A stretch of DNA of 58,625 nt from Chloroflexota bacterium (GTDB lineage: Bacteria > Chloroflexota > Anaerolineae > B4-G1 > SLSP01), in assembly GCA_034717835.1 (NCBI GenBank), contig JAYELZ010000034.1, forward strand, positions 1 to 58,625. Reading direction: 5' to 3'. A program made the position numbers and the translations under genes. Positions 2,426 through 15,632 of this stretch are shown here, piece by piece (within the stretch, counting starts at the first letter, position 1; the number at the start of each line of letters is the position of its first letter). Under the pieces are notes generated by a model. The model did not search any database. It had not been told where the DNA came from and saw only the letters and a program-made list of their open reading frames with translations.

Positions 2426-2554
2426 GGCTAACACGGATTGGAGCCGACCGGGCTAATCTTGGCGCTTTTCGATTGCTCGATGCACTTTGGAATTGCCTGG
2501 TTGGTGAAGGCTCTTTCTCGCAACCGCCCGGCGGTTCAATCTTGACCGTTGCCC
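2426..2554 (+). mobile_element. Integron attC-like recombination site
   Basis: Inverse core GGCTAAC (2426-2432) 30 bp after the stop codon. Arms TTGGAGCCGACCGGGC / GCCCGGCGGTTCAA pair with extra unpaired bases. Ends in GTT (2548-2550). Confidence 0.7.
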
Positions 2555-2583
2555 ACCCCCTCACCCGTGTTCAGCGTCACGTC

Positions 2584-2670
2584 ATGGCCCGACGAAGATC
2601 AACCAAAACCAAACGCCCGATTGAATCCTACCAATACACCGGCAAGGAGCGGGTCAACAACCCGCCCGCC
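2584..2670 (+). pseudogene. N-terminal remnant resembling a site-specific DNA methyltransferase (type III Mod-like)
   Basis: MARRRSTKTKRPIESYQYTGKERVNNPP resembles, from memory, the basic N-terminus with the R-x-NNPP motif of that family. The reading degenerates immediately afterwards. Confidence 0.4.
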
Positions 2671-2770
2671 GCCCCAAATCACGGCGATAAATCGCCTACT
2701 ACAAGCCCGGGTTATTTTCGAAGCAGTCGCTGAACCGCACCCAATCAACAATCACTAACTCCCCACGCAC

Positions 2771-2800
2771 AACGCCCCCAGGTAAATGCCTGGGGGCGTT
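2771..2800. terminator. GC-rich hairpin between convergent units
   Basis: AACGCCCCCAGG-taaatg-CCTGGGGGCGTT, perfect 12-bp stem. Confidence 0.6.
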
Positions 2801-2852
2801 CGGTGTCTCACAATCTACGCGATCTTCTCCACTCTAGCTGTGGCCGGTCTCA

Positions 2853-3161
2853 TTATCTTATGACTGACACACCAGCCGTAACCGCTACAGGCACAAAGAC
2901 CTGGGGAGGACGTATTTTCAGATCAACCGGTCGCCGGGTATGCATGCGCGCGATGATCAGCGGCTTATCAGAGTCGCCTTGTTGGCTCAGCAATTCCAGG
3001 TTACGTTGTCCCAGTTCAGGGTCGTCGTCGGGCAGGATGACCAGCCGAAAGTTATCGGGGAGCCGCTCCAAGATGCCAGGATGGCTCAAGATATATTGCA
3101 TAAAAACTGTCTGCAGTTCCAGATTATGCTCGAACATTTCATCGTTAGTCATTTTATCCAT
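2853..3161 (-). CDS. DUF5647-like small protein (putative TA-associated)
   Basis: NLEL...FMQYILSHPGILERLPDNFRLVILPDDDPEL..RNL pattern. An alternative start at 3152 overlaps an upstream stop (ATGA). Confidence 0.6.
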   Translation of the reverse strand: MDKMTNDEMFEHNLELQTVFMQYILSHPGILERLPDNFRLVILPDDDPELGQRNLELLSQQGDSDKPLIIARMHTRRPVDLKIRPPQVFVPVAVTAGVSVIR

Positions 3162-3264
3162 CTCTTGTACCGCTCCAGATAGTAGCGCCAGTGCGCTTTG
3201 ATGTCACATTGGGCGTATCGGTTTGCCCCTCCACGAGGATGTTGACGCGCACGAGGGAACTCAT
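3154..3264 (-). pseudogene. Truncated DUF4276-like gene fused by deletion to the 3' end of another small gene
   Basis: MSSLVRVNILVEGQT (TOPRIM-like VEGQT start) is coupled by ATGA to the ATPase and stops after 36 aa. Another frame reads YAQCDIKAHWRYYLERYKRWIK*. Confidence 0.6.
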
Positions 3265-4352
3265 CGTGTGGGCCTCCCGCCCAGCACATTTTTCTCCCAC
3301 AACTCACCTAGGGCATAGTCCTCAAGCCACTCGGACAAGCGAGCGGGGTCTACGCGCTCAATGACCGTCGCGCGATCTCGATTTTCGACGATCAGCAAAT
3401 CCTCCGGCTCGAATTGATTGACCAGAGTCACGGATTGGGTCGAGACAATGAGTTGCTTCTTCGCTGCGGCACTGCGCATCAAAGAAGCCAACACACCGAT
3501 CGCATAAGGGTGCAGTCCCAGTTCCGGCTCATCAATCAGAATCGTGGCAGGTAAGCGCGGCTGAAGCAGCAACGTCGCCAGACAAATGAAACGCAGGGTG
3601 CCGTCTGAGAGGTGATGCGCCATGAAAGGATAGTCCGAACCCGGTTCGCGCCACTCCAGGCGAATTTTGTTCTCGTTCTCCGGTAGAGGACGCAGGATGA
3701 AATCATCGAAAAAGGGTGCGACTAAACGGACGGTATCTCTAATTGCCTCGTAATGTGAGCGCTGAGATTGCTGAAGGCGATAGAGAAATGCGGCCAAGTT
3801 ACCGGCGTTTGGGCGGAGGTAGCGGTTATCGTTGATGTCGCCAATCTTTTTCAGCGGTGCGCTGTCGCTGGTGTCGTGGAAGTGATAGACCCGCCAGCTC
3901 TTCAAGCCGTCAAGAACGTAATAAAAAGGTCTCCAGCGTTTCTCCTGTACCGCTTGGGGTAAGTTGCTCTCCAGCTGCCCTGACCCCAAAGACCGTTCTG
4001 CTTGAGAGGCATAATCGCCATAAAAGATGCAGTTTTCCTCGGCAAAGAACAGCCGGTCATCTACCGTGGGCATCCAAACGCAGGCATAAGCATTTTTGCC
4101 AAAGGTCAATTTTACCGTGATTTTAGCGGTGGTCTTTTGCCCAAAGTACAAGAAGGTATCGGCCCCGCCGTGTTGCCGGACAAAAGTTTGGAAATTCCCC
4201 ATCACCATTTGATTGAGCAGCTGGAAGAGGGCGATAAGGTTGCTCTTCCCGGCGCCATTGGCCCCGATCATCACATTCAAGGGGCGTAGTGCTAACTTCT
4301 GCAACTCTCGAATGGATTTGAAGCCGCTTACCTCAATGCTATCTAAACGCAT
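3261..4352 (-). CDS. AAA family ABC-type ATPase (COG4637/AAA_21-like)
   Basis: GFKSI, GANGAGKSN, LSDGTLR, ILIDEPELGLHP, STQS, C-terminal LGELWEKNVLGGRP. Confidence 0.85.
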   Translation of the reverse strand: MRLDSIEVSGFKSIRELQKLALRPLNVMIGANGAGKSNLIALFQLLNQMVMGNFQTFVRQHGGADTFLYFGQKTTAKITVKLTFGKNAYACVWMPTVDDRLFFAEENCIFYGDYASQAERSLGSGQLESNLPQAVQEKRWRPFYYVLDGLKSWRVYHFHDTSDSAPLKKIGDINDNRYLRPNAGNLAAFLYRLQQSQRSHYEAIRDTVRLVAPFFDDFILRPLPENENKIRLEWREPGSDYPFMAHHLSDGTLRFICLATLLLQPRLPATILIDEPELGLHPYAIGVLASLMRSAAAKKQLIVSTQSVTLVNQFEPEDLLIVENRDRATVIERVDPARLSEWLEDYALGELWEKNVLGGRPTR

Positions 4353-4401: not shown

Positions 4402-4439
4402 AGCCCCTCTCGAAGATTCAAAAAACCTCGAGAGGGGCT
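4402..4439 (-). terminator. Intrinsic terminator of the FDH operon
   Basis: AGCCCCTCTCGA...TCGAGAGGGGCT stem, followed by a T-rich tract on the minus strand. Confidence 0.6.
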
Positions 4440-4468
4440 AGCTGTGGCCGGTCTCTGACCGAGCCACC
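4438..4468. repeat. REP-like palindrome family A (GTGGCCGGTCTC[C]TGACCG.GCCAC)
   Basis: Related copies at 2834-2851 (partial), 21273-21301, 35636-35658, 35684-35713 (inverted) and 58541-58565 (inverted). Confidence 0.8.
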
Positions 4469-4481
4469 TCTGGAAATTACC

Positions 4482-7205
4482 TTACGCGATCTTCTCTACT
4501 TTGACCGCGCTGACCTTATACTCTGGAATCTTCGCCACGGGATCCAGGAAAGCCCCTGTCAGCCAGTTAGCATTCCCCGCCGGGAAATGGAACGTACTGA
4601 AGACTAACCCCGGGGCGACCCGATCGGTCAACCACGCGCGGGCCACCAGCTCGCCACGGCGTGACGCCAGTTTGATCTGGTCCCCGTCCACAATCCCCAG
4701 TCGATCCGCGTCGTCAGGATTGATCTCGACCAGCGGTTCGGGGTAGAGCGCCAGCAGGCTCTCGGAACGACGCGTCTGCTCGCCGCCGTGCCAGTGATAG
4801 AGCACGCGCCCCGTCGTCATGGTGAAGGGGTACTCGGCGTCGGGAGCCTCACGCGGCTCAAGGTGCTCGTTGGCGGTGAAAAGCCCCAGCCCACGGGCGA
4901 ACTTCCCAACGTGCAGGATGGGAGTGCCGGGATGCTCGTCCCCGCGCACGGGCCAGGCGAGCTGCGCGCCCGCGTCCAGCCGCCAGTAGTGGACGCCGCT
5001 GTAGATGGGGGTGCAGGCCGCGATCTCGTCCATCACGTCGGCGGGCGAAGCGTAGTGCATGGGGTAGCCCATGCGGGTACCGACTTCGCAGATGATCTGC
5101 CAGTCGGGGCGCGACTCGCCGGGAGCTTGTACGGCCTTGCGCACGCGCTGAATGCGGCGCTCGGTACTGGTGAAGGTGCCCTCCTTCTCGGCGAAACAGG
5201 TGCTGGGCAGGATCACGGTGGCGTATTGAGCCGTCTCGGTCATGAAAATGTCCTGCACGACCAAGAAGTCTAAAGTTTCCAGGGCTACCTTGACGTGGTT
5301 GAGATCAGGATCGGAGGTCATGGGGTTCTCGGCAAAGACGTAGAGTGCTTTGAGGTCGCCATCATGAGCGGCGTTCATTAGCTCCACGACGGTGAGGCCG
5401 ACTTTGTCGGATAGCCCCTCTACGCCCCAGAAAGCCTCGAACTTCTCCTTCATCGCCGGGTCAACCACTTTCTGGTAGCCGGGGTAGACGTTGGAGAGCG
5501 TGCCTAAGTCACACGCGCCCTGCACGTTGTTCTGGCCGCGCAACGGATTCACGCCGCCGCCACGCACGCCCAAGTTACCCAGGAGCATCTGCAGGTTCGC
5601 TAACGACATCACGTTCATCGTGCCGGTGGTGTGCTGGGTGATGCCCATTGACCAGAAGACCGCGCTGGGCTTGTTCTCGTGGAGCAGGCGCGCCGCTTCT
5701 TTGATCTTCGCGGCGGGCACCGTGGTGATCTCCTCGGTGAGCTCCAGCGTGTATTTCATCACCACTTCTTTGCACGCCTCGAAATTCTCGGTGCGCTCGG
5801 CGATGTATTCCTTGTCTTCCCAGCCGTTGACGATGATCTCGCGCATGATGCCGTTGAAGAGCGCGACGTCGGTGCCGGGGCGCTGTTGCAGGTGCAACAC
5901 GGCCAGCTTGCACAGGTCAATTTTGCGCGGATCGGCGACGATGAGTTTGACGCCTTTCTCGCGGATGGCCTTGCGCATCTTGATGCCGATGACGGGGTGC
6001 TGCTCGGTGGTGTTGGAGCCGGTGACGAAGTAGAGTTTGGCGTCTCCGGTGGAGTCCTCGATGGAGTTGGTCATCGCGCCGCTGCCCAACGTGCTGGCCA
6101 GACCGGCGACGGTGGAGGAGTGGCAGAGGCGGGCGCAGTGATCCACGTTATTGGTCTTGCCGACCGCGCGGGCTAGCTTCTGCATCAGGTAGTTCTCCTC
6201 GTTAGTACACTTGGCGGAGGAGAGGTAGCCGACACTGTCGGGGCCGCTGTGATCGCGGTGGTAGGTCAGCTTCTGGGCGACGAGGTCTAACGCCTCATCC
6301 CAGGTCGCTTCGCGGAAGCCGGGATATTTGCTGCCGCCATTCGCGTCGCGGATGAGGGGGACGGTCAGCCGTTCGTCGCTGTGGACGAAGTCCCAACCGT
6401 AGCGCCCCTTGACGCACAGCGCCATACCGTTCGCCGGCGCTTCAGGCGTGGAGGTGACGCGGGTGATCTTGCCGTCCTTCACGTTGAGGTCAAACTGGCA
6501 ACCCACGCCGCAGTAGGTGCAGGTGGTGCGAACCTTCGTCTGGTAAGTAGCGCGTCCCCAGCCCTGGGAGGGCTTGTCGAAGAGCGCGCCCACCGGGCAG
6601 TAGGCCACACAGTTGCCGCAGGATTCACAGTCTGCGTCTAGCATTGGTTGATTGGCGCCGGCCACGACCAATGTATCGAAGCCGCGCTCGGAGAAGTTCC
6701 AGACGTCACGTCCCTGGATCTCGGCGCAGGCGCGCACACAGCGCCCGCAGAGGATACATTTATTCATATCCACCAGGACGACGGGGTTGGGGTCGGAATC
6801 AACGGGGCGCGAGTGGCGTGCCCCACTGTGCTCCGGCCACTGCACGTCGTATTCGTAGACCCAGCGTTGCAGCTCGCAGTCACCGTCCATTTCGCAGGTC
6901 ATGCACTCGTTGGGATGGTCGGTCAGCAGCATAGAGAGTGTGAAGCGGCGCGAATCTACCACTTTATCTGTCTGCGTATGCACCACCATGCCTTCGGTAG
7001 CCGGTAACGTACACGATGTCTCCAGGTTACGCATCCCCTCAACCTCCACCACACATAAGCGGCAGGCCCCCGTCGGTGTAAGGTCAGGATGATGACAGAG
7101 CGTTGGAATTGTGATGCCTAGTTGTTGGCTAGCTTCTAAAACTGTGGAATTTGCTGGAACGGTTACCTCTTGGCCATCAATAGTCAGGTGAACCATTTTC
7201 GTCAT
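4482..7205 (-). CDS. fdhF: Formate dehydrogenase alpha subunit (Mo/W-bisPGD, Cys ligand) with N-terminal 2Fe-2S and 4Fe-4S domains
   Basis: PTLCHHP..GACRLCVVE, HPNECMTC, CILCGRCVRAC, CTYCGVGC..LCVKG, active site DHCARLCHSSTV, LRGQNNVQG, C-terminal molydopterin-binding domain with KIPEYK. Confidence 0.93.
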   Translation of the reverse strand: MTKMVHLTIDGQEVTVPANSTVLEASQQLGITIPTLCHHPDLTPTGACRLCVVEVEGMRNLETSCTLPATEGMVVHTQTDKVVDSRRFTLSMLLTDHPNECMTCEMDGDCELQRWVYEYDVQWPEHSGARHSRPVDSDPNPVVLVDMNKCILCGRCVRACAEIQGRDVWNFSERGFDTLVVAGANQPMLDADCESCGNCVAYCPVGALFDKPSQGWGRATYQTKVRTTCTYCGVGCQFDLNVKDGKITRVTSTPEAPANGMALCVKGRYGWDFVHSDERLTVPLIRDANGGSKYPGFREATWDEALDLVAQKLTYHRDHSGPDSVGYLSSAKCTNEENYLMQKLARAVGKTNNVDHCARLCHSSTVAGLASTLGSGAMTNSIEDSTGDAKLYFVTGSNTTEQHPVIGIKMRKAIREKGVKLIVADPRKIDLCKLAVLHLQQRPGTDVALFNGIMREIIVNGWEDKEYIAERTENFEACKEVVMKYTLELTEEITTVPAAKIKEAARLLHENKPSAVFWSMGITQHTTGTMNVMSLANLQMLLGNLGVRGGGVNPLRGQNNVQGACDLGTLSNVYPGYQKVVDPAMKEKFEAFWGVEGLSDKVGLTVVELMNAAHDGDLKALYVFAENPMTSDPDLNHVKVALETLDFLVVQDIFMTETAQYATVILPSTCFAEKEGTFTSTERRIQRVRKAVQAPGESRPDWQIICEVGTRMGYPMHYASPADVMDEIAACTPIYSGVHYWRLDAGAQLAWPVRGDEHPGTPILHVGKFARGLGLFTANEHLEPREAPDAEYPFTMTTGRVLYHWHGGEQTRRSESLLALYPEPLVEINPDDADRLGIVDGDQIKLASRRGELVARAWLTDRVAPGLVFSTFHFPAGNANWLTGAFLDPVAKIPEYKVSAVKVEKIA

Positions 7206-7287
7206 AAGAACCTCCTTACAGCTGCAAAATTTGTTTTTATCAAAGTTTAAAATAACGGATTAACAACCAATGCCAGACTTTTCAAAA

Positions 7288-8946
7288 TCACAGATAATTA
7301 TGCTGGATAGTTTCGGGTGCTGGTTGGTTGACTTTATCCAGAGGACAGACCTCGGCCGGGCAATGACCGGCCAAGTGAGCTTCAAATTCTTCACGGAAGT
7401 AGCGTAACCCGGTGATGATGGGGACTGCCGCTGCCTGACCAAGACCACAGAAGGAAAGTTCCTGAACCTGCGTGGCAATTTCTTCCAACGCCAACAGCTC
7501 CTCCGTCGAGCTCTGCCCGTGACGCATCCGCGCCAGTATCTCCAACATGCGGGTAGTGCCGATACGACAGGGGGTACATTTGCCGCAGGATTCGGCTTGG
7601 AAGAAGCGCATCAGCACGTAAGCCAGATCCACGATGCAGGTATCTTCTGCACATATGAGCAGCGCGCCGCTGCCCAGCGACGCCCCCTGCTCCTGCATTG
7701 ACTTGTAATCCAGCGGTACGTCCAACATCTCCGGGGGGATGAAACTGCCCGAAGCGCCGCCCGTCTGGGCGCATTTGAACGTTTTGCCAGCTTTCATGCC
7801 CCCGCTGTAAATATCCAGCACCTCTCGCAGCGTGATCCCCATCGGGACCTCAATCAGCCCGGTGATGTTGACATCACCTAACATGGTGTAGACCTTGGCG
7901 CCGGGGCAATGCTCGGTTCCGATGGAGCGGAACCATTCCACCCCGTTATGGATAATGGGGGGGATATTGGCGAGCGTCTCCACATTGTTGACCACGGTAG
8001 GTTTATCACGGAACCCGGCCACGGTGGGATAAGGCGGGCGGATACGCGGGATGCCTCGTTTGCCCTCCAAGCTTTCCAGCAGAGCGGTCTCTTCGCCGCA
8101 GATGTAAGCGCCGGCGCCAGCGTGGAGGTGGATGTGGAAGGAGAAGTCACTCTCCATGATATTATCACCCAGCAAACCGTACTCTTCTGCCTGCTGGATA
8201 GCCAGTTCCAGCCGCTCTCGGGCTTGACCGTACTCGCCACGGATGTAAATCCAGCCCTGGTCAGCGCCGACGGCATAGCCGGCAATTGCCATCGCTTCCA
8301 ACACCACGTGCGGGTCGCCCTCCAAGATCAGGCGATCTTTGAAGGTACCCGGCTCGGATTCGTCGGCATTGCAGACGATGAATTTCTGAGCTGACTGCTG
8401 ACTTTCTACGAAAGACCACTTTAGCCCCGTGGGGAAGCCCGCGCCGCCGCGTCCTTGCAAACCGGATTCTTTGATCGTCTCCACCACCGCGTGCGGGGAG
8501 AAGTCACTGAGCACGGCGCCCAGCGCGAAATAACCATCCTCGGCAATGTACTCTTCGATATCGGTGGGATCAATGCTGCCGGCACGTTGCAAGACCACGC
8601 GCTTCTGCGCGTAAGTGATCCCAGTACGGCCGGGTAGATGTGCGATCTCGCCGCTCAACATCTCTGGTGGGGCCAGTAGCTGTTCGACTACGCGGCCCTT
8701 GTAGAGCTGCTCCTCCACGATGTAGGCCGCATCTGCCGGCGTGACCGGGCCGTAGCGGGTCCCTTCTGGGTAGATGATCACCAACGGCAACGCATCGGTG
8801 CGATCCGCTGGGCCCATGTACGCGACCTGGACTTCATCCAGCAGCCCGTAGCGGGATAGTTCCGCTTCAAAGGCCAGTTTCGTTTCTTCAGCGCCACGCG
8901 AAAGACTGAGAGAATCGCTAGAAATCAGTATGCGTGCGCGAATCAT
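7288..8946 (-). CDS. NuoF/HydB-like FMN- and NADH-binding subunit, short form without C-terminal ferredoxin domain
   Basis: GRGGAGFPTGLKW, CNADESEPGTFKDR, GAGAYICGEET, ESCGKCTPCRIG, CGLG. Confidence 0.9.
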   Translation of the reverse strand: MIRARILISSDSLSLSRGAEETKLAFEAELSRYGLLDEVQVAYMGPADRTDALPLVIIYPEGTRYGPVTPADAAYIVEEQLYKGRVVEQLLAPPEMLSGEIAHLPGRTGITYAQKRVVLQRAGSIDPTDIEEYIAEDGYFALGAVLSDFSPHAVVETIKESGLQGRGGAGFPTGLKWSFVESQQSAQKFIVCNADESEPGTFKDRLILEGDPHVVLEAMAIAGYAVGADQGWIYIRGEYGQARERLELAIQQAEEYGLLGDNIMESDFSFHIHLHAGAGAYICGEETALLESLEGKRGIPRIRPPYPTVAGFRDKPTVVNNVETLANIPPIIHNGVEWFRSIGTEHCPGAKVYTMLGDVNITGLIEVPMGITLREVLDIYSGGMKAGKTFKCAQTGGASGSFIPPEMLDVPLDYKSMQEQGASLGSGALLICAEDTCIVDLAYVLMRFFQAESCGKCTPCRIGTTRMLEILARMRHGQSSTEELLALEEIATQVQELSFCGLGQAAAVPIITGLRYFREEFEAHLAGHCPAEVCPLDKVNQPAPETIQHNYL

Positions 8947-9416
8947 GCTTCACCTCCTGTGCGATAGCGATTCAGAATAGACTTGACCTTTGCGGGGGTG
9001 AGATTGCCATAGGCTTCCTCATCCACCAACATCACCGGCCCTACGGCACAGAGACCCAGACAACTGGTCGGTAATAAAGTCCAGTTGCCATCTGCGGTAG
9101 TCTCCCCAAATTGGATGCCCAACTCACGCTCCAACGTTTCCCAGATCTCGCGGCCCCCTGCCACGTGACAGGGTGCATCTTGACAGAGCTTGATCACGTG
9201 CTCGCCCAGCTGCTCCACGTTGATCATGCTGTAGAAACTGGCGACGCTATGAACTTCGCTGGGGGGCAGCTGGAGCCGCGCAGCCACGGCTTCCATAGCC
9301 TCCGTCGTGAGATACCCGCTTTGTTGGCTCAGCTCACGCAGGATCTCGACCAACGCTTCACGGCTTGTTCCGTGGTGACCGATTACTTCATCAATCAAAG
9401 TCAAATTTGTTTCCAT
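8943..9416 (-). CDS. NuoE/HydC-like 2Fe-2S subunit
   Basis: VASFYS, LCQDAPCH, SCLGLCAVGP. Confidence 0.9.
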   Translation of the reverse strand: METNLTLIDEVIGHHGTSREALVEILRELSQQSGYLTTEAMEAVAARLQLPPSEVHSVASFYSMINVEQLGEHVIKLCQDAPCHVAGGREIWETLERELGIQFGETTADGNWTLLPTSCLGLCAVGPVMLVDEEAYGNLTPAKVKSILNRYRTGGEA

Positions 9417-9526
9417 ATTTACCTCTTTTGGCAGTCTAGTAGTCAGGTAATTTCCAATCTCAATTATCCGGCCAAGTGACTAAGCGATCAAGCGACTAAG
9501 GACTAAGCGACTACCCGACTAATTGA

Positions 9527-11299
9527 CTATTCCACATGCACAGCTTCAACCGGGCAGACTTGCTTGCAGATGCCGCAGCGGATGCAGCTCTCCGGGTCAA
9601 TGATGTGTACTTCCTTCGGCTTCCCGCTGATGGCGTTGACCGGGCAGTTGCGGGCGCAGCGGGTGCAGCCGATGCAGGCCTCTGGGTCGATGGTAAATTC
9701 AATCAATCCCTTGCAGACTTTGGCGGGGCATTTCTTAGCGTAGATGTGCGCCTCGTACTCGTCGCGGAAATATTTGATGGTGCTTAAGACGGGGTTCGGC
9801 GCGCCCTTGCCCAGTCCACAGAGAGAACCTTCCTTAATATAGTCCGCCAGGGACTCCAGCCGCTCGATATCGCCAGGTTGTCCTTTGCCGGCGCAGATAT
9901 CGTTCAGGATTTCCAACATGCGGCGAGTTCCGACACGGCAGGGGGTGCATTTGCCGCAAGATTCGTCCTGCGTAAATTCCATGAAGAAGCGAGCGATATC
10001 CACCATGCAGGTATCCTCGTCCATCACCACGAAGCCGCCAGACCCCATCATGGAGCCGACTGAAGCCAGACTTTCGTAATCGACGGGCAGATCCAAGTAT
10101 TCCTCTGGGATACAGCCGCCCATCGGGCCGCCGGTCTGCACGGCCTTGAACTTTTTATCATTCAGGATGCCCCCGCCAATGTCATAAACAATCTCGCGGA
10201 TGGTCATGCCCAGCGGCACTTCCACCAACCCGGTGCGTTTTACCTTGCCGGCGATGGCGAAGGTCTTGGTGCCCTTGCTTTTCTCCGTGCCCATTGAGGA
10301 GAACCATGCCGCCCCACGCCGGAGGATTTTGGGGACATTGGCCAAAGTCTCCACGTTGTTGATGTTGGTGGAGTATCCCCAGAGGCCGGAGTTGGCGGGG
10401 AATGGGGGCCGGGTGAGCGGCATCCCGCGCTTTCCTTCAATGGATTGCATGAGTGCGGTCTCTTCTCCGCAGACGAAAGCGCCGGCGCCCATGCGGATCT
10501 CGATATCAAAGTCAAAGCCACTCTCGAAGATATTTTTGCCCAGCAAGCCATACTCGCGCGCCTGCTTGATGGCTGTACGCAGGATTTTGATGGCGATAGG
10601 ATACTCGGCGCGCACGTAGATGTAGCCCTGTTGCGCGCCGATGGCGTAGGCGGCGATCGCCATACCTTCCAACACCGCGTGGGGATCACCTTCCAGGACG
10701 CGGCGGTTCATAAATGCGCCGGGATCGCCCTCGTCGGCGTTGCAGATCACGAACTTCTGCTCACTATCCGCCCGGCGGGCAAAATTCCATTTAAGCCAGG
10801 TGGGGAAGCCAGCACCTCCACGCCCACGCAACCCGGATTCCTTCATCTCAGCGATCACGTTCTCCGGTTCCATTTCAGAGAGCACTTCACCCAGTGCGAT
10901 GTAACCATCTAGTGCGATATAATCGTCGATATTTTCGGGGTCAATCTTCCCGATGTTAGCCAGCACCACGCGCACCTCTTTAGCTGAGGGCGGGGGGAGT
11001 GGTTCACTGGGCGGTTCTTGATAAGTTAGTTTCTCTATAGGGCGACCTTTGAGTAGATGTTCGGCGACAATAAGCCGGGCATCGTCGGTGGTCAGGTTAA
11101 CATACTGAGTCCCTTCTGGATAGATGACCAGCTCTGGGCCTTGTGCATCATGGCCTAAAGAGCTAACTTCCATAACTTGGACTTCAGCAGCCAACTCTAA
11201 CGTGGCGAGCTCCTCCTGGAGAGCAGCTTTTACTTCCTGCGCCCCCAGGTCAATACACTGCGGGCTGTTGCTGATCAATACATGTGCACGGTAAACCAT
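9527..11299 (-). CDS. NuoF/HydB-like flavin subunit, long form with C-terminal 2x[4Fe-4S] ferredoxin domain
   Basis: CNADEGDPGAFMNR, GAGAFVCGEET, GGPMGG, ESCGKCTPCRVG, CPAKVC, CIGCTRCARNCP, CIRCGICKQVCP. Confidence 0.92.
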   Translation of the reverse strand: MVYRAHVLISNSPQCIDLGAQEVKAALQEELATLELAAEVQVMEVSSLGHDAQGPELVIYPEGTQYVNLTTDDARLIVAEHLLKGRPIEKLTYQEPPSEPLPPPSAKEVRVVLANIGKIDPENIDDYIALDGYIALGEVLSEMEPENVIAEMKESGLRGRGGAGFPTWLKWNFARRADSEQKFVICNADEGDPGAFMNRRVLEGDPHAVLEGMAIAAYAIGAQQGYIYVRAEYPIAIKILRTAIKQAREYGLLGKNIFESGFDFDIEIRMGAGAFVCGEETALMQSIEGKRGMPLTRPPFPANSGLWGYSTNINNVETLANVPKILRRGAAWFSSMGTEKSKGTKTFAIAGKVKRTGLVEVPLGMTIREIVYDIGGGILNDKKFKAVQTGGPMGGCIPEEYLDLPVDYESLASVGSMMGSGGFVVMDEDTCMVDIARFFMEFTQDESCGKCTPCRVGTRRMLEILNDICAGKGQPGDIERLESLADYIKEGSLCGLGKGAPNPVLSTIKYFRDEYEAHIYAKKCPAKVCKGLIEFTIDPEACIGCTRCARNCPVNAISGKPKEVHIIDPESCIRCGICKQVCPVEAVHVE

Positions 11300-11340
11300 A
11301 GGACCTCCTTAATAACTGTGAGCGTCACTCACACTGCCGG

Positions 11341-11706
11341 CTATTTAGCTGTTTTAACTTCCCATTCGGGCACTGGTTCGCCAGCGACGAGGCGTTTGAC
11401 GATCAAGGTAGCCGCGCGCGCCGCATCAATTTTGCCGTACCAGGTAGGTTCCTCAGCGCCGACCTGGATCTTGACCAGCGGCTCGTATTCGCAGAGGCCA
11501 ATGCAGCCAGTTTGCGTGACTACCACATCCTTGAGCTGGCGCTGCTCGATCTCAGCGAGAATAGCTTTCATAGTTTCGCGCGCGCCGGCGGCAATGCCAC
11601 AAGTGCCCATTGCCACGGTCACGCGCGCTCGCGCTTCTGTCCCACTTAATTGGCGACGTTGCAGGGCACGTTCTTTGATTTTACGTAGTTCGGCTAAATT
11701 TTTCAT
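11341..11706 (-). CDS. Thioredoxin-like [2Fe-2S] ferredoxin (HydD/HndB-like)
   Basis: VAMGTCGIAAGAR, QTGCIGLCEYEP. Confidence 0.88.
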   Translation of the reverse strand: MKNLAELRKIKERALQRRQLSGTEARARVTVAMGTCGIAAGARETMKAILAEIEQRQLKDVVVTQTGCIGLCEYEPLVKIQVGAEEPTWYGKIDAARAATLIVKRLVAGEPVPEWEVKTAK

Positions 11707-11758
11707 GCTTTATTTCCTCCTAAGGTATAAATCAACGGGTTAGAAAATTGCCGGGTGA

Positions 11759-12334
11759 TTAGTGCGGAGTTATTCCCGATAGCCCGGCTTCCAAAGTGTT
11801 TCTGAGGAATCCCAACACTTCGGGGTCAGAGAGAGGTACCTCATTGCCTAGTACTGCTCGTACCTCGCGGGTATCCAAAATAAACTCCTCTTCCGCTGGG
11901 GATGTCAGACCTATCAAGTGATGGTGGTAATAAAGATCGACTTGCGGATAACCGACGATCATACAAGTGACAGTTGTTGCCACATCGCCCAGAGGAGGCC
12001 GGTCAATGTGGCTATATTGGAAGGACGCCTGGGTCGTTGTCCCTTGACCTGGTTGCGAGTGAATCGCGAAGTTCCCCCCGCACATCTCTGCCGTTTGCTT
12101 AAAGAAAGGAATCCCCAAACCTACCTTGCGCGTGGTGCGCGTCGTGACCCAGGGATCGGCAATGTGTTGGAGCATCTCGGCATCCATCCCTGCGCCATTA
12201 TCGCATAAGGTGATGGTGAGTAGGTCTTGCTGCAAGTCCTCCTCGATATCCACGGTAATCAACGTGGCACCGGCTTTGACGCCATTCTCGTAAATATCCA
12301 AGATGTGTTGGGACAGGTCCCGAAAAACGGTCAT
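11759..12334 (-). CDS. Stand-alone HATPase_c (histidine-kinase-like ATPase) of hydrogenase-type operons
   Basis: DLSQHILDIYENGVKAGA, DNGAGM, TTRTTRKVGLGIP, HIDRPPLGD. Confidence 0.85.
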   Translation of the reverse strand: MTVFRDLSQHILDIYENGVKAGATLITVDIEEDLQQDLLTITLCDNGAGMDAEMLQHIADPWVTTRTTRKVGLGIPFFKQTAEMCGGNFAIHSQPGQGTTTQASFQYSHIDRPPLGDVATTVTCMIVGYPQVDLYYHHHLIGLTSPAEEEFILDTREVRAVLGNEVPLSDPEVLGFLRNTLEAGLSGITPH

Positions 12335-12422
12335 TAGGTTAGTCCATTAGTTGGTTAGTCGTTAGTCAAGTAGTCAAGGGCTAATCTTCAACTTTAGACC
12401 TTTGACTTTGGACTTTTGACTC

Positions 12423-12920
12423 CTATTTATATTTGCGTAGAATACGACCTATCTTACCCGGATCAACGCGTCCCACAATGTCGTCGTCAACCATCACCAC
12501 CGGCGCCTGTGAGCAAGCTCCCACGCAGCGGCAAATCTCCAAAGTGAAGCGGTTATCTTCTGTGGTTTCGTTGATATCCACCTCCAAGAGCTGTTTAAGC
12601 TTCTCCACTAGCATGGGGCCGTCGCGCACGTAGCAAGCGGTTCCCAGACAGACACTGACCTTATGCCGTCCAATGGGGCTGGTGCGGAAGGAGGAGTAGA
12701 AAGTCAATACGCCGTAGAGATGGCTGAGTGGTACATGCAGCTGCTCCGCGAGGTAGCTCTGCATAGGGGGAGAGATGTAGCCCACCTCTTCCTGCACCAA
12801 AGTTAATACCAACATGGTGGCTCCAGGTTTGCCGAGATTTTTGGCCAGAATAACATCAATTTTTTCTCTGTTTTCCGGCTGTAGCTCTGCTACCAGTTCT
12901 TCGGCAGGAGTGACATTCAT
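12423..12920 (-). CDS. NuoE/HydC (HndA)-like 2Fe-2S subunit
   Basis: YGVLTFYS, VCLGTACYVR, CRCVGACSQAP. Start moved to ATG 12920, which follows a GAGGTG RBS. Confidence 0.9.
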   Translation of the reverse strand: MNVTPAEELVAELQPENREKIDVILAKNLGKPGATMLVLTLVQEEVGYISPPMQSYLAEQLHVPLSHLYGVLTFYSSFRTSPIGRHKVSVCLGTACYVRDGPMLVEKLKQLLEVDINETTEDNRFTLEICRCVGACSQAPVVMVDDDIVGRVDPGKIGRILRKYK

Positions 12921-13000: not shown

Positions 13001-13028
13001 ATTATACTGGCAATTCTTCTAATTCCAA
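13001..13028 (-). promoter_or_regulatory. Putative sigma70 promoter for the nuoE...fdhF unit
   Basis: Minus strand TTGGAA-16 nt-TATAAT within an AT-rich gap. Confidence 0.4.
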
Positions 13029-13073: not shown

Positions 13074-13823
13074 TTAGGGGACGTAGAAACTCCGCCCATC
13101 TATGCTGTGGAGAGCCAGACGTAGCTCGGCGATAGTTGGCGCGGCTAGAGAGTAGATAGTTCTTACTTGCCCCAGAGTATCCAACCAATGCGCGTCGGAG
13201 TTGGTGATGAGCGGCAGGTCTGGCAGAAAAGGGTATCGGTGCCGTGCCTCGGAGGGGCGTAAGCGTGAGGAAACCTCCGCGGCATCGGCCTCCAGGTGTG
13301 GTGGCCAGAGGCCCAACACGCCTAGTAGTCCCTTTGCCGGACGTGTGATGTGGGCTGGAATGACCAGCCCGCCCAGCGCGTGGACGGCGCGAGCCGCTTC
13401 TTCTAGCGAAATCTGCGCCGGCCCCTGATAGAAATACAACTCCTCGCGCACGAAATTACCCTCGGTGTCGACCACAAACTGTGGCCCGAAGTGTTCCGGG
13501 TCATTTTCCAGGGGTAGTAAGAGCGGCGTGACCTGCGATTGCCAGCTCATGGCCTGCTCCAAAGTATCAAAGAGGCAGAGCAAGTCCACTTCCTCCTGCG
13601 CTTGGAGTTCCATGCCCGGCAATACAGTCAGCCCGGTGCCGTGCGCCGCCTCCATCACCGCCGCCGCGTTAGCTGTGGCATTGTGATCGGTGATCGCGAT
13701 GATGTCCAACCCTTTGTGGAGTGACTCGTCCACAATCAATGGAGGGATCATCTCCACCTCGGCGCAAGCGGAAAGTACCGTGTGAATATGTAGATCAGCT
13801 TGGTAGGCGCGGATGGCGGGCAC
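13074..13823 (-). CDS. PHP-domain metal-dependent phosphoesterase
   Basis: DLHIHTVLSAC, AITDHN, GME, PAH, NSDAH. Confidence 0.9.
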   Translation of the reverse strand: MPAIRAYQADLHIHTVLSACAEVEMIPPLIVDESLHKGLDIIAITDHNATANAAAVMEAAHGTGLTVLPGMELQAQEEVDLLCLFDTLEQAMSWQSQVTPLLLPLENDPEHFGPQFVVDTEGNFVREELYFYQGPAQISLEEAARAVHALGGLVIPAHITRPAKGLLGVLGLWPPHLEADAAEVSSRLRPSEARHRYPFLPDLPLITNSDAHWLDTLGQVRTIYSLAAPTIAELRLALHSIDGRSFYVP

Positions 13824-13831: not shown

Positions 13832-14164
13832 TTAGTACCCTGCTTGGATCAGTTTAGCGACGGTTTCGTAGGTTGGTTCCGCGCTGGAAAGAAGCACTAC
13901 GCCTTCCGCCATGGCTTTTTCGACCGTTGCCGGGGCGATGGGAGCATCTTCCGTTACTACAATCGCCGCTACCTCCAACATGGAAGCGATGGCGATGATG
14001 TTGAGATGGGTCTGCAGGGTGAACCAGAGTTGCCCCGGTTGTACGCCGGCCATCACACAACTCAATAGATCGGCGATATAGCAGCCTTGGGCTTCACGTT
14101 CCAGTTGCTTTGCCCCGGCCAACACCTTCAAATCTAGTTCAGCTACAATTTTCTTCAGCTGCAT
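13832..14164 (-). CDS. DRTGG-domain protein
   Basis: CYIADLLSCVMAG..LWFTLQTHLNIIAIA pattern. Confidence 0.8.
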   Translation of the reverse strand: MQLKKIVAELDLKVLAGAKQLEREAQGCYIADLLSCVMAGVQPGQLWFTLQTHLNIIAIASMLEVAAIVVTEDAPIAPATVEKAMAEGVVLLSSAEPTYETVAKLIQAGY

Positions 14165-14203: not shown

Positions 14204-15166
14204 TTACTGCGGGGTGACGTTGAAAATCATCTCCACGCGGGTCCCCGTATTCACGGCTGACCAGACGTGTAGTGCGTCAGCACAGTGTTCGGCGTTGACC
14301 AGTCCCATGCCGGCTCCGAAACCCATTTCGCGGGCTTTTTGCGAGGCGGTAGAGAAGCCGGGCTGGCGGGCTAAGGCGACATCCGCGATGCCTGGCCCAT
14401 CATCGTGGGCCACTATGGTGATCTGCTCTGGCTGGATTCTGGCGACAATGTGCCCGCCGTTGAGCGTGTGGATAATCAAGTTGATCTCTATTTCGTAGGT
14501 TGCAATCGCCACCCGTCGTGCCAGTTGAGGAGTAGCTCCAATTTGCTGTAAAGCTTTCTTGATGCTGGAAGAGGCGTGTCCGCCTTTGATGAAATCTCCG
14601 ACTTGTACCCGGTAGCGCAAGGTCAAACTGGTCTCGTCTGAATTTAAGGCTTGGAAGAAGTGGTGTGATTGTTCTTGCTGCTGCAATTGCTCAATTTTCC
14701 GATAGGCTTTTTCCAGGGTTTGGAGGAGACCTGCCATAATATCGCCTTTTGTCAGAATTCCGGTCAAATTACCTAATTTGTCGACCACTATCAGACGTCC
14801 GAAGCCAGCCGTCTCTATCCGCTTTAGAGCTTCCACGACCGGTTCTTCATCCAGTGCGGTAGCTAGATCGGTGGCCATGAATTCGGTCACCGGAGCGTCT
14901 AATCGCTCCTGTTCTAGGGCACGAATTAGGTCTTCTACACTGACAAGTCCCAATAATTCTTGGTGTTCAGGAGATACAATGGGGATACCTGACACCCGCT
15001 GGTCACGCATCATATCCTTTACAGCGCGCATTAAGGTTGTCGGGGGGAGCGTTGAGATGTTGGCCGTCATCACCTCGGAGACCTGAATTTCATAGGTCAG
15101 CTCATGTAAGATGGAGAGCGGAAGGTCCTTACCCATCCGCGCGAAAAGCGAAAAATTTTGACTCAT
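14204..15166 (-). CDS. CBS-pair fused to anti-sigma-factor-type Ser/Thr kinase (HATPase)
   Basis: Two CBS repeats (VSGIPIV..LLGLVSVEDL; GRLIVVD..LTGILTKGDI), then YEIEINLIIH, DDGPGI, GFSTA, EMGFGAGMGL. Confidence 0.85.
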   Translation of the reverse strand: MSQNFSLFARMGKDLPLSILHELTYEIQVSEVMTANISTLPPTTLMRAVKDMMRDQRVSGIPIVSPEHQELLGLVSVEDLIRALEQERLDAPVTEFMATDLATALDEEPVVEALKRIETAGFGRLIVVDKLGNLTGILTKGDIMAGLLQTLEKAYRKIEQLQQQEQSHHFFQALNSDETSLTLRYRVQVGDFIKGGHASSSIKKALQQIGATPQLARRVAIATYEIEINLIIHTLNGGHIVARIQPEQITIVAHDDGPGIADVALARQPGFSTASQKAREMGFGAGMGLVNAEHCADALHVWSAVNTGTRVEMIFNVTPQ

Positions 15167-15528
15167 TGTTGTTGTACCATTGAGAGCTTGCCAAGCCCCG
15201 CTAAGCCAGCTTGATAGAGCAATCCAGAAGTTTCATACATGCTATAATCCGAGAGCAAAATCCCAACGCCGGTTTCTTGGGCCATAGTCAGTAATAGTTC
15301 TGGTGGTCGTTTGCCGCGCACAAAAAGAATTAGCGGAATATCAGACATTTCCGCGGTACGGATGGTCTGCGGATTGATCAAGCCCGTGAGCATTAGTAGC
15401 TGTGGTCTCGCAAAAGCTAAAATATCACTCATCAGATCAGCGGCAAAAGCATATTCTACTTCAATGTCTACTGACGGTGAAACCAGAACCTCACCGTCTA
15501 CTATTGTTGCAATCTCATTTATTCTCAT
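15163..15528 (-). CDS. DRTGG-domain protein
   Basis: AFAADLMSDILA, LTGLINPQTIRTAEM, VRGKRP. Start at 15528 follows a GGAGG RBS. Confidence 0.8.
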   Translation of the reverse strand: MRINEIATIVDGEVLVSPSVDIEVEYAFAADLMSDILAFARPQLLMLTGLINPQTIRTAEMSDIPLILFVRGKRPPELLLTMAQETGVGILLSDYSMYETSGLLYQAGLAGLGKLSMVQQQ

Positions 15529-15632
15529 GGTCGCCGTTGCCTCCTGCAATAATGCAGTTGAATTTCGATTGAGGTTACTTTTTAGGAAAATAAGTACATT
15601 TCTTAATGTGGAAGATTGCCTGTACAAAGGGT

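Follow-up and report, generated by a model that had tools for sequence, protein, structure and literature searches.

The locus described here raises the question of how an uncultured Anaerolineae bacterium uses a single formate dehydrogenase (FDH) that is encoded beside two unlike NADH-flavin modules: the first is of the ferredoxin-coupled (electron-bifurcating) type, the second of the NADH-only type. The genes lie within the window, the whole stretch of 58,625 nucleotides that was analysed. Minus-strand open reading frames together with Pfam and NCBIfam scans bore out the order nuoE1-HATPase-ferredoxin-nuoF1-nuoE2-nuoF2-fdhF (minus strand, 12920–4482) that an earlier note had read from the sequence. 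Four further genes of the operon, omitted from that note, lie upstream of nuoE1 at 15627–13074 (DRTGG, CBS+HATPase, DRTGG and PHP). The features are:

15163..15627, minus strand: DRTGG-domain protein, first of the conserved upstream regulatory block (Pfam PF07085, E 2.2e-5, slightly under the gathering score); orthologue in the same position in 11/15 mapped tandem loci
14204..15166, minus strand: CBS-pair and HATPase (anti-sigma/kinase-like) protein (Pfam CBS, HATPase_c_2), kept upstream of nuoE1 among relatives
13832..14164, minus strand: DRTGG-domain protein, second copy (Pfam PF07085, 27.3 bits), kept in relatives
13074..13823, minus strand: PHP-family phosphoesterase (Pfam PHP, PHP_C), kept immediately upstream of nuoE1 among relatives
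13001..13028, minus strand: promoter-like site before nuoE1 (TTGGAA-16-TATAAT, 10/12, a consensus match only)
12423..12920, minus strand: nuoE1, BfuC/HydC-type [2Fe-2S] subunit (PF01257, 2Fe-2S_thioredx, 153.6 bits); the start at 12920 is the ATG downstream of the promoter-like site, the longest reading frame being open back to 12995
11759..12334, minus strand: HisK-like HATPase protein (PF02518, HATPase_c, 54.6 bits)
11341..11706, minus strand: thioredoxin-like 2Fe-2S ferredoxin, HydD-like (NCBIfam fdxn_Clost, 35.4 bits, under the cut-off)
9527..11299, minus strand: nuoF1, BfuB/HydB-type flavoprotein (Complex1_51K, SLBB, NADH_4Fe-4S, C-terminal Fer4 dicluster)
9417..9526, minus strand: nuoF1–nuoE2 gap, 110 bp, with a weak promoter-like site at 9491–9463; no terminator-like site was found on this strand of the gap
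8943..9416, minus strand: nuoE2, second NuoE-type [2Fe-2S] subunit (PF01257, 167.9 bits; NF005722, 160.5 bits, above the cut-off of 141)
7288..8946, minus strand: nuoF2, NADH-only-type flavoprotein (Complex1_51K, NADH_4Fe-4S), its frame sharing 4 bases with that of nuoE2
7205..7333, minus strand: catalytic-cassette swap junction, that is, the nuoF2 3' end and spacer, where DNA likeness to locus L023 stops
4482..7205, minus strand: fdhF, FdsA-type molybdo/tungstopterin FDH alpha subunit (TIGR01591, 863 bits, cut-off 666)

In public runs, all from a single study, independently assembled contigs span the nuoF1–nuoE2 joint in three of four and the nuoF2–fdhF joint in four of four; since separately assembled contigs bridge both joints, the operon order is not a chimera of the bin. 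No RNA run with the locus was found among the public runs.

Assigned by their sequences, NuoE1 and NuoF1 are a BfuC/BfuB (HydC/HydB) module. All four cluster cysteines of NuoE1 are invariant in 15 orthologues. The translation of NuoF1 contains EGDPGAFM, GAFVCGEE and GGPMG and, as the earlier note had claimed, a C-terminal 2x[4Fe-4S] ferredoxin-binding domain, visible as two CxxCxxCxxxC motifs; the protein also has the FMN/NADH site, the B1 cluster and all five ligands of the B2/Zn site. Its nearest solved chain is HydB of Acetomicrobium mobile [7t2r_B, 823 bits, full length], with which it has all B2 ligands and B3/B4 in common. Unlike that protein, NuoF1 lacks the [2Fe-2S] (B5) cysteines, called invariant in the accessible text of Schut 2022, and its N-terminal thioredoxin-like domain carries no cluster. 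The HisK-like HATPase gene occupies the place that "hisK" has in the hydrogenase operon of A. mobile (Schut 2022; Feng 2022; accessible parts), and the HydD-like ferredoxin, for which no Pfam match was found, has three visible cysteines and a position kept in relatives. As far as that operon is described there, the grammar hydC-hisK-hydD-hydB-...-hydA of the electron-bifurcating NiFe-HydABCSL (PDB 7t2r/7t30) equals nuoE1-HATPase-ferredoxin-nuoF1 here; the tandem loci differ in holding an extra nuoE2-nuoF2 between hydB and hydA, and in the window an FDH replaces the hydrogenase part.

Module 1 might be thought a redox-sensing or regulatory device, or the relic of a lost hydrogenase, paired with the DRTGG, CBS-HATPase, PHP and HisK-like proteins and carrying no catalytic flux, given that it always accompanies the regulatory block and has lost the B5 cluster. 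We consider this most improbable. The FMN/NADH-site motifs and the ligands of B1, B2, B3, B4 and C1 are invariant across the orthologues examined, and dN/dS is 0.08 (against a same-genus relative, nuoE1 0.075, the HisK-like gene 0.135, the HydD-like ferredoxin 0.081 and nuoF1 0.081). Moreover, the same regulatory block (DRTGG, CBS-HATPase, PHP) stands ahead of ordinary HydABC operons of Bacillota, and therefore marks the type of operon and not a sensor role of NuoF1.

NuoF2 (ESEPGTFK, GAYICGEE and GGASG, likewise present in the translation as noted earlier) bears the non-bifurcating signature of TFK, Y and GGASG, and has neither the C-terminal ferredoxin domain (no Fer4) nor an N-terminal cluster. 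In a motif census AFM and F occurred in 31/31 NuoF1 orthologues and TFK and Y in 34/34 NuoF2 orthologues, and the controls came out as published (E. coli NuoF TYK/Y, C. necator HoxF TFK/Y, cyanobacterial HoxF AFM/F/GGPSG). The typing of the two modules as bifurcating and non-bifurcating, first proposed from the motifs, fits the criteria in the accessible part of Losey 2020 and holds in all orthologues examined. NuoE2 is 29% identical to NuoE1, and NuoF2 50% to NuoF1. NuoF2 resembles FdsB in its T-x-K/A and Tyr signature and in having no C-terminal clusters; it scores, however, 598 and 572 bits against HydB-type chains and 376 and 315 against FdsB. An ordinary NuoF or FdsB is ruled out, as NuoF2 retains an N-terminal thioredoxin-like domain and the BfuB-type Cys/His/Cys/Cys site, which the FdsB-like, HoxF and NuoF references do not have. 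With nuoF2 at a dN/dS of 0.127, purifying selection acts on both modules (0.075–0.16, same-genus relative).

FdhF is of the Cys type and has a NuoG-like N-terminus. Its nearest solved chain is FdsA of Rhodobacter capsulatus [6tg9_A, 778 bits, residues 5–903], from the NAD+-dependent FdsABG(D) enzymes of that organism and Cupriavidus necator, and the two align over the whole length, with the Cys-His pair, the active-site arginine (RGQNNVQG) and the His/Cys3 ligands of cluster A4 in common. Unlike FdsABG(D), a whole Bfu-type module is co-encoded here. DNA likeness to a hydrogenase-type locus of the same genus (L023, 80–86%) stops at 7333, and identity to the genes of another relative (G010) is 90.6% for fdhF and only 72.6% for nuoF2; the FDH of this genome is a recent replacement by a swap of the catalytic cassette. 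An FdsA-type FDH stands behind both modules in this genome and 7 other genomes of the family. The two-module layout is not specific to FDH: in the relatives it mostly precedes an Acetomicrobium-type NiFe hydrogenase (HydA/S/L), whose A subunit is nearest to A. mobile HydA [7t2r_A, 311 bits]. In the larger FastTree the FDH-adjacent NuoF2 sequences branch at the base of the family NuoF2 clade, and the two NuoF2 copies of one genome (G019) each match the type of the adjoining catalytic gene, a grouping which suggests that E2F2 and the A subunit are a co-evolving unit; the smaller IQ-TREE does not resolve the FDH-adjacent grouping.

What else NuoE1F1 might serve was sought in the rest of the genome. 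Since the assembly, a bin of 276 contigs, is 95% complete, a missing partner is "not found" rather than "absent". The objection that a hydrogenase encoded elsewhere is the true partner gained no ground, as no FeFe or NiFe hydrogenase, HypD or second BfuA-like protein was found in this 95%-complete genome, nor were RnfC, complex I, NuoD, PFL, hydS, hydL or hyp genes. FdhF is its sole PF00384 match and its sole BfuA-like N-terminus found, and there are two NuoE and two NuoF only. The genome also holds FdhD and five POR_N matches, among them a PFOR of 1215 aa.

The reading that we favour, at about even confidence, and every binding and activity step of which we infer, is that NuoE2F2-FdhF would be the core NADH-linked enzyme and that NuoE1F1 would couple the same FDH to ferredoxin. 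On the NuoG-like N-terminus of one cytoplasmic FdsA-type formate dehydrogenase/CO2 reductase, two diaphorase modules would dock at a single surface. The NAD(H)-linked core is suggested by the non-bifurcating signature, by the translationally coupled nuoE2-nuoF2 pair and by the lone E2-F2-catalytic units of some relatives. The C-terminal 2x[4Fe-4S] domain of the putative HydC/HydB module would take reduced ferredoxin, and wherever NuoE1-NuoF1 occupied FdhF, whether by displacing E2F2 or by using the other protomer of an FdsA-like dimer, the enzyme would be confurcating (reduced Fd + NADH + 2 CO2 -> 2 formate, or the reverse). Formate would then be the electron sink of a fermenter that has pyruvate:ferredoxin oxidoreductases but in which no hydrogenase, Rnf or complex I was detected, and the Bfu module its sole recognisable route of ferredoxin re-oxidation. 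The choice of mode may fall to the co-encoded DRTGG, CBS-HATPase, PHP and HisK-like proteins.

A structure model of NuoF1, NuoE1 and FdhF(1–240) is consistent with such docking: ipSAE is 0.86 against 0.66 for the best control, the three runs have no fewer than 96% of contacts in common, and partner pLDDT is 86 or higher. The ipSAE mark is reached by 58/80 solved complexes and 2/110 mismatched pairs. The margin is only +0.20 over a control that retained NuoE1, and the model passes because of likeness to the solved HydABC, Fds and complex I structures. NuoF2 has the identical residue at 19 of the 27 positions where NuoF1 is predicted to make contacts, versus 50% identity overall. Both modules are predicted at one site, and therefore a single FdhF could not carry them simultaneously. 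They might nevertheless sit together in a larger complex, for example one on each half of an (FdhF)2 dimer connected via cluster A4, with two pyridine-nucleotide sites that might differ in NAD/NADP preference or be transhydrogenase-like, the second idea of the earlier note. The R. capsulatus FDH dimerises via FdsA with clusters A3-A4-A4'-A3' within transfer range (Radon 2020, accessible part), FdhF keeps the A4 ligands, and the stable 1:1 pairing of genes across the class fits a fixed stoichiometry. We nonetheless think it improbable: the two FdsA interface leucines of R. capsulatus are Asn and Met in FdhF, the A. mobile HydABCSL dimers hold cofactors >40 Å apart in the available description (Feng 2022), and putative E2F2-A units stand without module 1 in some genomes.

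The arrangement is no one-off, as the earlier note had allowed it might be: NuoF1 is followed by NuoE2 in 22/26 same-family genomes, and, of the 35 NuoF2-bearing genomes among 401 sampled from the class, 27 have it immediately ahead of NuoE2/NuoF2. Pairing of the two flavin modules is conserved across the class, and the linkage survives both exchange of the catalytic gene and permutation of the order (PHP-E2-F2-E1-HisK-HydD-F1-A in L105). The exceptions bear on a further explanation, namely that NuoE1-NuoF1, perhaps with HydD, acts without FdhF, either as a stand-alone reduced-ferredoxin:NAD+ oxidoreductase or for a partner that is no BfuA homologue, and that a separate, ordinary NuoE2F2-FdhF uses its NADH; the genes would then be linked as co-regulated steps of one electron route and not as one complex. 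We regard this as unlikely, though the likeliest of the alternatives. Nearly all loci have nuoE2 and nuoF2, not nuoF1, adjoining the catalytic gene; E2F2 with a catalytic subunit occurs without NuoF1 in G016, which is 100% complete with one PF01512 match, and also (as HydD-E2-F2-A or E2-F2-A) in 6 of the 35 class genomes; and in G013 and G018 module 1 stands apart from E2F2-A, with unrelated genes after it. The weak promoter-like site ahead of nuoE2 points the same way, as do the Type 4 Bfu enzymes without BfuA described in the accessible text of Schut 2022. In that text, however, nearly every one of 1558 HydB genes shares an operon with homologues of HydA and HydC, and a free BfuBC enzyme was not found in the literature consulted. 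A short circuit from Fd to NAD+ would also lose the low potential behind feasible NADH-driven CO2 reduction, NuoF1 adjoins A in L105, and the docking model, as a prediction, passes. F1-type modules occur with such an A subunit elsewhere, given the single-module Anaerolineae operons L043 and L044 (E1-HisK-HydD-F1-A), the likeness of A to HydA, and an F1-type gene immediately before an fdhF-like gene in G005. In two genomes (G077, G191) succinate-dehydrogenase-like genes, and no A subunit, lie downstream of nuoF2.

If NuoE1F1 does couple the FDH to ferredoxin, as we favour, the conserved pairing of both module types would be nature's own test of the way in which cells change from one chemistry to the other. 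We found no description of a two-flavin-module FDH arrangement in print. Among the closest known systems are the Fdh-Bfu enzymes, namely the predicted Type 1 of Carboxydothermus hydrogenoformans and the bifurcating FDH characterised from Gottschalkia acidurici, which join a BfuBC core to a pterin FDH whose alpha subunit has a BfuA-like N-terminus (Schut 2022, accessible text). As described there their clusters have one BC pair, whereas here a second EF pair of non-bifurcating type lies between BfuB and the FDH, and the FDH alpha subunit is nearest to the non-bifurcating FdsA. The non-bifurcating NADH-dependent FeFe hydrogenases Syntrophomonas wolfei Hyd1ABC and Syntrophus aciditrophicus HydAB have a beta subunit with T/S, K/S/A and Tyr, no GGPSG and fewer clusters, and the accessible part of Losey 2020 proposes them for growth where H2 or formate is very low. 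In those organisms the NADH-only enzyme has a complete operon to itself. Here, in contrast, module 2, the NADH-only one, is encoded in one operon with a module of bifurcating type, and the two apparently have a catalytic subunit in common. A 2026 preprint reports cyanobacterial HoxEFUYH, a group 3d-like NiFe enzyme whose diaphorase is of the NuoEF type, to be bifurcating, and in its available text AFM/F/GGPSG track bifurcation even without B3/B4. HoxF has these residues and an N-terminal [2Fe-2S] cluster, neither of which is present in NuoF2; NuoF1 instead has B3/B4, and the Hox operons carry one EF pair each against the two found here.

The operon consists of seven genes running in one direction on the minus strand (12995–4482), as defined from the ORF list with Pfam and NCBIfam scans, and is preceded by further genes of the same conserved block:

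nuoE1, minus strand: 2Fe-2S_thioredx domain (153.6 bits)
HATPase_c protein, minus strand: 191 aa
thioredoxin-like ferredoxin, minus strand: 121 aa, its sole match (NCBIfam fdxn_Clost) being sub-threshold
nuoF1, minus strand: 590 aa; Complex1_51K, SLBB, NADH_4Fe-4S and a C-terminal Fer4 dicluster
nuoE2, minus strand: 157 aa
nuoF2, minus strand: 552 aa; Complex1_51K and NADH_4Fe-4S, without Fer4
fdhF, minus strand: 907 aa; TIGR01591 (863 bits against a cut-off of 666)
15627–13074, upstream of nuoE1: DRTGG, CBS+HATPase, DRTGG and PHP genes (Pfam)

The earlier note had described one formate dehydrogenase (FDH) with flavin modules of bifurcating and non-bifurcating type; the gene order and every motif which it quoted are present in the ORFs, domain scans and translations. 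The intergenic gaps of module 1 (nuoE1 to nuoF1) are 88, 52 and 41 bp and that between nuoF1 and nuoE2 is 110 bp, while nuoE2 and nuoF2 overlap by 4 bases and fdhF is preceded by 82 bp. Since a promoter-like site, a consensus match only, lies at 13028–13001, nuoE1 likely starts at the ATG at 12920. The nuoF1–nuoE2 gap holds a second, weaker promoter-like site, also a consensus match only, and a consensus scan of the operon strand found no terminator-like site there. No riboswitch was found near the operon, Rfam at gathering score giving only a tRNA at 56838–56908. Bridging contigs of separately assembled runs rule out a bin chimera as the origin of the FDH arrangement.

The first four genes have the same order as hydC-hisK-hydD-hydB of Acetomicrobium mobile, which specifies the electron-bifurcating NiFe-HydABCSL (Schut 2022; Feng 2022). 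NuoF1 is closest over its full length to HydB of that complex (7t2r_B, 823 bits), followed by A. woodii HydB. By the definition given in Schut 2022, BfuB proteins comprise an FMN/NADH domain, SLBB, NADH_4Fe-4S (cluster B1) and a C-terminal 4Fe-4S dicluster (B3, B4); NuoF1 has this full set (PF01512, PF10531, PF10589 and Fer4 families at residues 536–588), and its alignment to 7t2r_B shows the motif of B1 and those of the two C-terminal clusters (CxxCxxCxxxC twice). At the B2/Zn site, A. mobile C438, C476 (or T), H525, C531 and C536 align as C, C, H, C and C; among 31 NuoF1 orthologues C438, H525, C531 and C536 are C, H, C and C in all, and at the C476 position 30 have Cys and one has Thr. NuoF1 departs from BfuB at the N-terminal [2Fe-2S] cluster B5, of whose four cysteines, called invariant in BfuB by Schut 2022, its N-terminal thioredoxin-like domain keeps one; the complete set occurs in 0/31 orthologues. 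This cluster may be dispensable, since Li 2025 found Zn at both B2 and B5 in active NfnABC. The same paper cites a T. kivui B3/B4 deletion which abolished bifurcation.

The NADH/FMN signature of NuoF1 has AFM and Phe as in the bifurcating type (both in 31/31 orthologues), with GGPMG rather than GGPSG as third motif in 30/31. Of 129 other BfuB sequences, 124 have AFM, 125 Phe and 125 GGPSG. NuoE1 is of the BfuC type (PF01257, 153.6 bits), its C1 ligands C116, C121, C157 and C161 being invariant in 15 orthologues. Many Anaerolineae BfuB-type genes are longer, at about 1020–1050 aa (L038, L039, L042, L119, L125; open frames of 1034–1113 aa); this form has a C-terminal extension of about 430 aa and serves as NuoF1 of the tandem operon in Caldilineaceae MAGs.

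NuoF2 scores 598 and 572 bits with HydB chains against 402 with Nqo1 and 376 and 315 with FdsB. It carries TFK, Tyr and GGASG, lacks B3, B4 and B5, has no N-terminal cysteines and ends just past the His-x-Cys-x4-Cys of the B2 site, with Arg at the C476 position. NuoF2 keeps the B2-site Cys/His/Cys/Cys, as do 29 of 34 orthologues; the site is absent from the references E. coli NuoF (TYK/Y), C. necator HoxF (TFK/Y) and an FdsB-like protein (TFA/Y). All 34 have TFK and Tyr, 31 have GG(S/A)SG and none has B5 cysteines. The typing criteria given in the earlier note agree with those of Losey 2020, in which the bifurcating beta subunit has A/E and M, Phe and GGPSG, and the NADH-only subunit T/S and K/S/A, Tyr and no GGPSG. 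These motifs gain diagnostic value from a 2026 preprint, according to which cyanobacterial HoxF has AFM/F/GGPSG and bifurcates although it lacks B3/B4. Published accounts differ on the roles of B2 and B5, and the mechanism of HydBC bifurcation as against look-alike NADH-only modules is still argued.

FdhF aligns over its full length with R. capsulatus FdsA (6tg9_A, 778 bits), its CARLCHS pairing with CARVCHS, and it keeps the arginine of RGQNNVQG and the interface A4 His/Cys3 ligands. With its NuoG-like N-terminus, bis-pterin domain, Cys-His and active-site Arg it fits the alpha subunit of FdsABG-type enzymes. Residues 3–208 match Fer2_4, NADH-G_4Fe-4S_3 and Fer4_Nqo3, so that the cluster includes a BfuA homologue, set apart from nuoF1 by nuoE2-nuoF2. 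None of the parts is of a new kind: BfuBC cores, FdsA-type FDHs and NADH-only beta subunits are all known. In the reading which we favour, and to which we give an even chance, NuoE2F2-FdhF would be the core NADH-linked FDH, and NuoE1F1 would be a Bfu-type module linking the same FdhF to ferredoxin, in which role it would either take the docking site in place of NuoE2F2 or sit on the other protomer. Formate would serve as electron sink in a cell which is predicted to make reduced ferredoxin and which shows no hydrogenase, Rnf or complex I.

Flavoprotein trees were built from 417 core columns, with FastTree (212 rows, 34 of them NuoF2) and quick IQ-TREE (62 rows), and rooted on E. coli NuoF alone; several reference branches are long, and those of C. 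necator HoxF and the M. bullatum FdsB-like protein are not firmly placed. The phylogeny proposed in the earlier note places the two NuoF proteins in separate clades: Anaerolineae NuoF2 is monophyletic (FastTree supports 0.986 and 0.949; SH-aLRT 99 and 95) and falls outside a clade of all BfuB-type sequences, cyanobacterial HoxF and the FdsB-like reference. Forcing NuoF1 and NuoF2 together was 68.5 lnL worse (p-AU 0.004, for a group chosen after the tree was inspected). The separate clade and this constraint test rule out NuoF2 as a recent duplicate of NuoF1. Since NuoF1 orthologues of different families are only 62–67% identical, the paired flavoproteins have presumably co-evolved for a long time.

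In FastTree the FDH-adjacent NuoF2 sequences branch off basally in the family clade, separate from those linked to hydrogenases, and G019, a relative with two NuoF2 copies, has one in each group; the smaller IQ-TREE (62 rows) did not resolve this grouping. The exception in FastTree is the window NuoF2, which sits with hydrogenase-linked congeners, as a cassette swap predicts. In DNA, the window is 80–86% identical to L023, a same-genus locus of hydrogenase type, from 15546 down to 7333, with no likeness past 7333; fdhF shares 90.6% identity with its counterpart in G010, a relative whose nuoF2 is only 72.6% identical to the window's. These observations show a recent replacement of HydA/S/L by FDH which left E1F1 and E2F2 in place. 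The junction is spanned by contigs of four separately assembled runs, all of them DNA and from one study; a look-up of RNA runs containing the locus gave none. A short dispersed repeat (4438–4468), directly after the fdhF stop, may mark the downstream edge of the swapped cassette. Its first 16 bases occur in 12 copies in the genome, including window positions 2834 and 35700; at this position run depth rises 4–5x and many run contigs end or diverge.

That NuoE1F1 is a sensor or a relic we regard as very improbable. The genes of module 1 give dN/dS values against L023 of 0.075 (nuoE1), 0.135 (hisK-like), 0.081 (hydD-like) and 0.081 (nuoF1), those of nuoE2 and nuoF2 being 0.161 and 0.127.

The earlier note allowed that the arrangement might be a one-off. 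NuoF1 followed by NuoE2(-NuoF2) was found in 22 of 26 family genomes (G000–G024, G234), and an F1-type gene lies directly upstream of NuoF2 in 27 of the 35 genomes with a NuoF2-clade gene (at least 56% identity) among 401 class genomes sampled evenly. The class count comes from a NuoF2 protein search and inspected loci; the 747 PF01512 matches in 301 class genomes did not enter it. The nearest relative locus (NuoF2 90% identity) is labelled as a Thermoflexia bacterium, the other nearest loci as Anaerolineae, and the layout also occurs in MAGs labelled Leptolinea, Bellilinea, Anaerolineaceae and Caldilineaceae. In one locus (L105) the order is permuted to PHP-E2-F2-E1-HisK-HydD-F1-A (A being the catalytic-side subunit), and a single-contig genome of 2.57 Mb (G243) carries the complete series regulators-E1-HisK-HydD-F1-E2-F2-FdhF-...-FdhD, its FdhF being 55% identical to that of the window. 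The A-like neighbours of Bacillota BfuB genes (about 580 aa), probably mostly HydA, were left out of every count.

What follows the two modules varies. Among the 22 family genomes, eight have a full FdhF (G000, G010, G015, G017, G019, G020, G023, G234) and 11 a 565-aa HydA-like gene (G002, G003, G006–G009, G011, G012, G014, G022, G024) whose closest match is HydA of A. mobile (311 bits); the contigs of G004 and G005 end at this point. In G021 an ISL3-family transposase gene (L016 9914–10831) occupies the expected position of the catalytic gene. The HydA-like gene is followed by Oxidored_q6 and NiFeSe_Hases genes in all three family loci scanned (L003, L011, L018), and by ORFs of the same size in L005, L007, L008 and L010. 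NiFe small and large subunits stand behind both modules in L003, L011, L018 and L197; neither was found in the window genome. G255 has both HydA/S/L and a stop-split fdhF after the two modules.

The fdhF homologues of G255, G158 and G077 (L197 1–2706, L209 1145–3877, L211 1378–4113) appear as ORFs of about 355 and 550 aa, split by one in-frame stop about where the window FdhF has its catalytic Cys, and look like selenocysteine-type FDHs. In G077 and G191 (L211, L212) the stop-split fdhF lies beyond SDH/fumarate reductase-like genes (cytochrome b subunit, flavoprotein, Fe-S subunit) and a YhhN protein gene, which follow nuoF2. A further 681-aa BfuB-type gene, without a preceding NuoE, lies directly upstream of an fdhF-like gene in G005 (L190 630–4929); the latter is truncated at the contig end, and a phage-integrase-family gene adjoins.

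The main points against coupling of NuoE1F1 to FdhF are stand-alone E2F2-A units and two genomes in which module 1 is unlinked. HydD-E2-F2-A or E2-F2-A without NuoF1 was seen in 6/35 genomes of the class sample (G076, G157, G219, G268, G343, G244), a contig edge accounting for two more; G016 (100% complete, one PF01512 match) has E2-F2-FdhF only, and G013 and G018 have the modules on separate contigs with unrelated genes after nuoF1. The remaining family genome, G001, gave only a fragment. That NuoE1F1 stands free of FdhF is an alternative of some weight, if a rather doubtful one. The operon of G019 (L014 8592–18035) holds, after module 1, an E2-F2-FdhF set and, past a MobA-like gene, another E2-F2 pair with a HydA-like gene; two complete NADH-type enzymes here accompany a single Bfu module.

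The genome bin is 95% complete with 2.7% contamination in 276 contigs, and absences are to be read as not found in such a bin. The earlier note asked whether NuoE1F1 might serve a hydrogenase encoded elsewhere; the bin gave no match for FeFe hydrogenase, NiFe large subunit (PF00374), HypD, NuoD/group 4 or PFL. FdhF is the sole PF00384 protein and, by tblastn, the sole BfuA-like N-terminus, and there are only two NuoE homologues. Since nuoF1 and nuoF2 are the only PF01512 genes, the bin gave no RnfC and no NuoF of complex I. Five POR_N matches, including a 1215-aa PFOR, suggest that reduced ferredoxin is made, and NuoF1 is by sequence the only recognized ferredoxin-accepting redox module found; formate appears to be the only outlet of that ferredoxin in this genome. 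The maturation factor FdhD (contig C123), FTHFS and one Prismane-family protein are also encoded.

A model of NuoF1, NuoE1 (26–190) and FdhF (1–240), from 15-row alignments, gave an ipSAE of 0.86 in three runs against 0.66 for the best control, with at least 96% of contacts shared and partner pLDDT of at least 86. Of 80 solved complexes 58 reach the ipSAE mark, as do 2 of 110 mismatched pairs; because NuoE1 was retained in the best control and structures of similar complexes exist, this pass speaks for likeness, not binding. At the predicted NuoF1 contact positions 19/27 residues are identical in NuoF2 (50% overall identity), as against 3/12 at those of NuoE1 in NuoE2 (28% overall). In the model both flavoproteins look fitted to the same FdhF site, so that one FdhF would not hold both modules. 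A fixed complex with two sites, holding both modules, is improbable. A dimer would offer a second site: in R. capsulatus FDH this forms through FdsA, with A3-A4-A4'-A3' within transfer range (Radon 2020). FdhF keeps the A4 ligands, while two flanking leucines of R. capsulatus FdsA are Asn and Met here.

Beyond our favoured reading of NuoE1F1 as a ferredoxin link for FdhF, we tentatively suggest that Anaerolineae possess a two-gear redox enzyme, in which one catalytic unit (FDH or NiFe hydrogenase) would use two exchangeable flavin modules. BfuBC would confurcate ferredoxin and NADH at high product pressure, the NADH-only module would act at very low formate or H2, and the kinase-, phosphatase- and CBS-like proteins encoded alongside would decide between them. 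If true, this would be the first natural case of bifurcating and non-bifurcating modes on a shared catalytic subunit. Hug 2013 mentions "two NuoEF operons" in a Chloroflexi bin, their function being unclear, and a 2018 paper notes, for another phylum, multiple nuoEF sets in the vicinity of fdh genes. In the literature consulted we found no operon described that combines a BfuBC pair with a further NuoEF pair; the supplementary list of Schut 2022 (1558 clusters), outside that scope, may hold such clusters. What we have not found in print is that EF pairs of both types are kept together across a class ahead of one catalytic unit, itself exchangeable between NiFe hydrogenase and FDH.

The operon family offers natural matched pairs of bifurcating-type and non-bifurcating-type flavoproteins which co-evolved beside the same catalytic subunit. 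Should both modules serve one enzyme, they would illustrate the way in which fermenting and syntrophic organisms adjust their output of formate or H2 to thermodynamic state, and would provide a compact system for the determinants of ferredoxin coupling, with AFM versus TFK, Phe versus Tyr and the C-terminal clusters as candidates. The question also matters for how Anaerolineae live in brines, sediments and digesters.

Elsewhere in the window, a region of low GC (41–4352; 42.8% over 1–2000 against about 55%) encodes two ATPases, of the AAA_13 (784 aa) and AAA_21 (363 aa) families, their likeness to defence ATPases being sub-threshold; G012 carries an AAA_21 gene of 71% identity downstream of its hydrogenase genes. 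A xanthine-dehydrogenase-family molybdoenzyme (36860–43584) has a fused FAD+2Fe-2S subunit and a 748-aa MoCoBD subunit, with a 573-aa DUF6909 protein (715 bits) encoded between its subunits. The genes at 23188–27188 encode a 796-aa fusion of an adenylate/guanylate cyclase domain with an AAA_16 ATPase and, after it, a 542-aa TPR protein.
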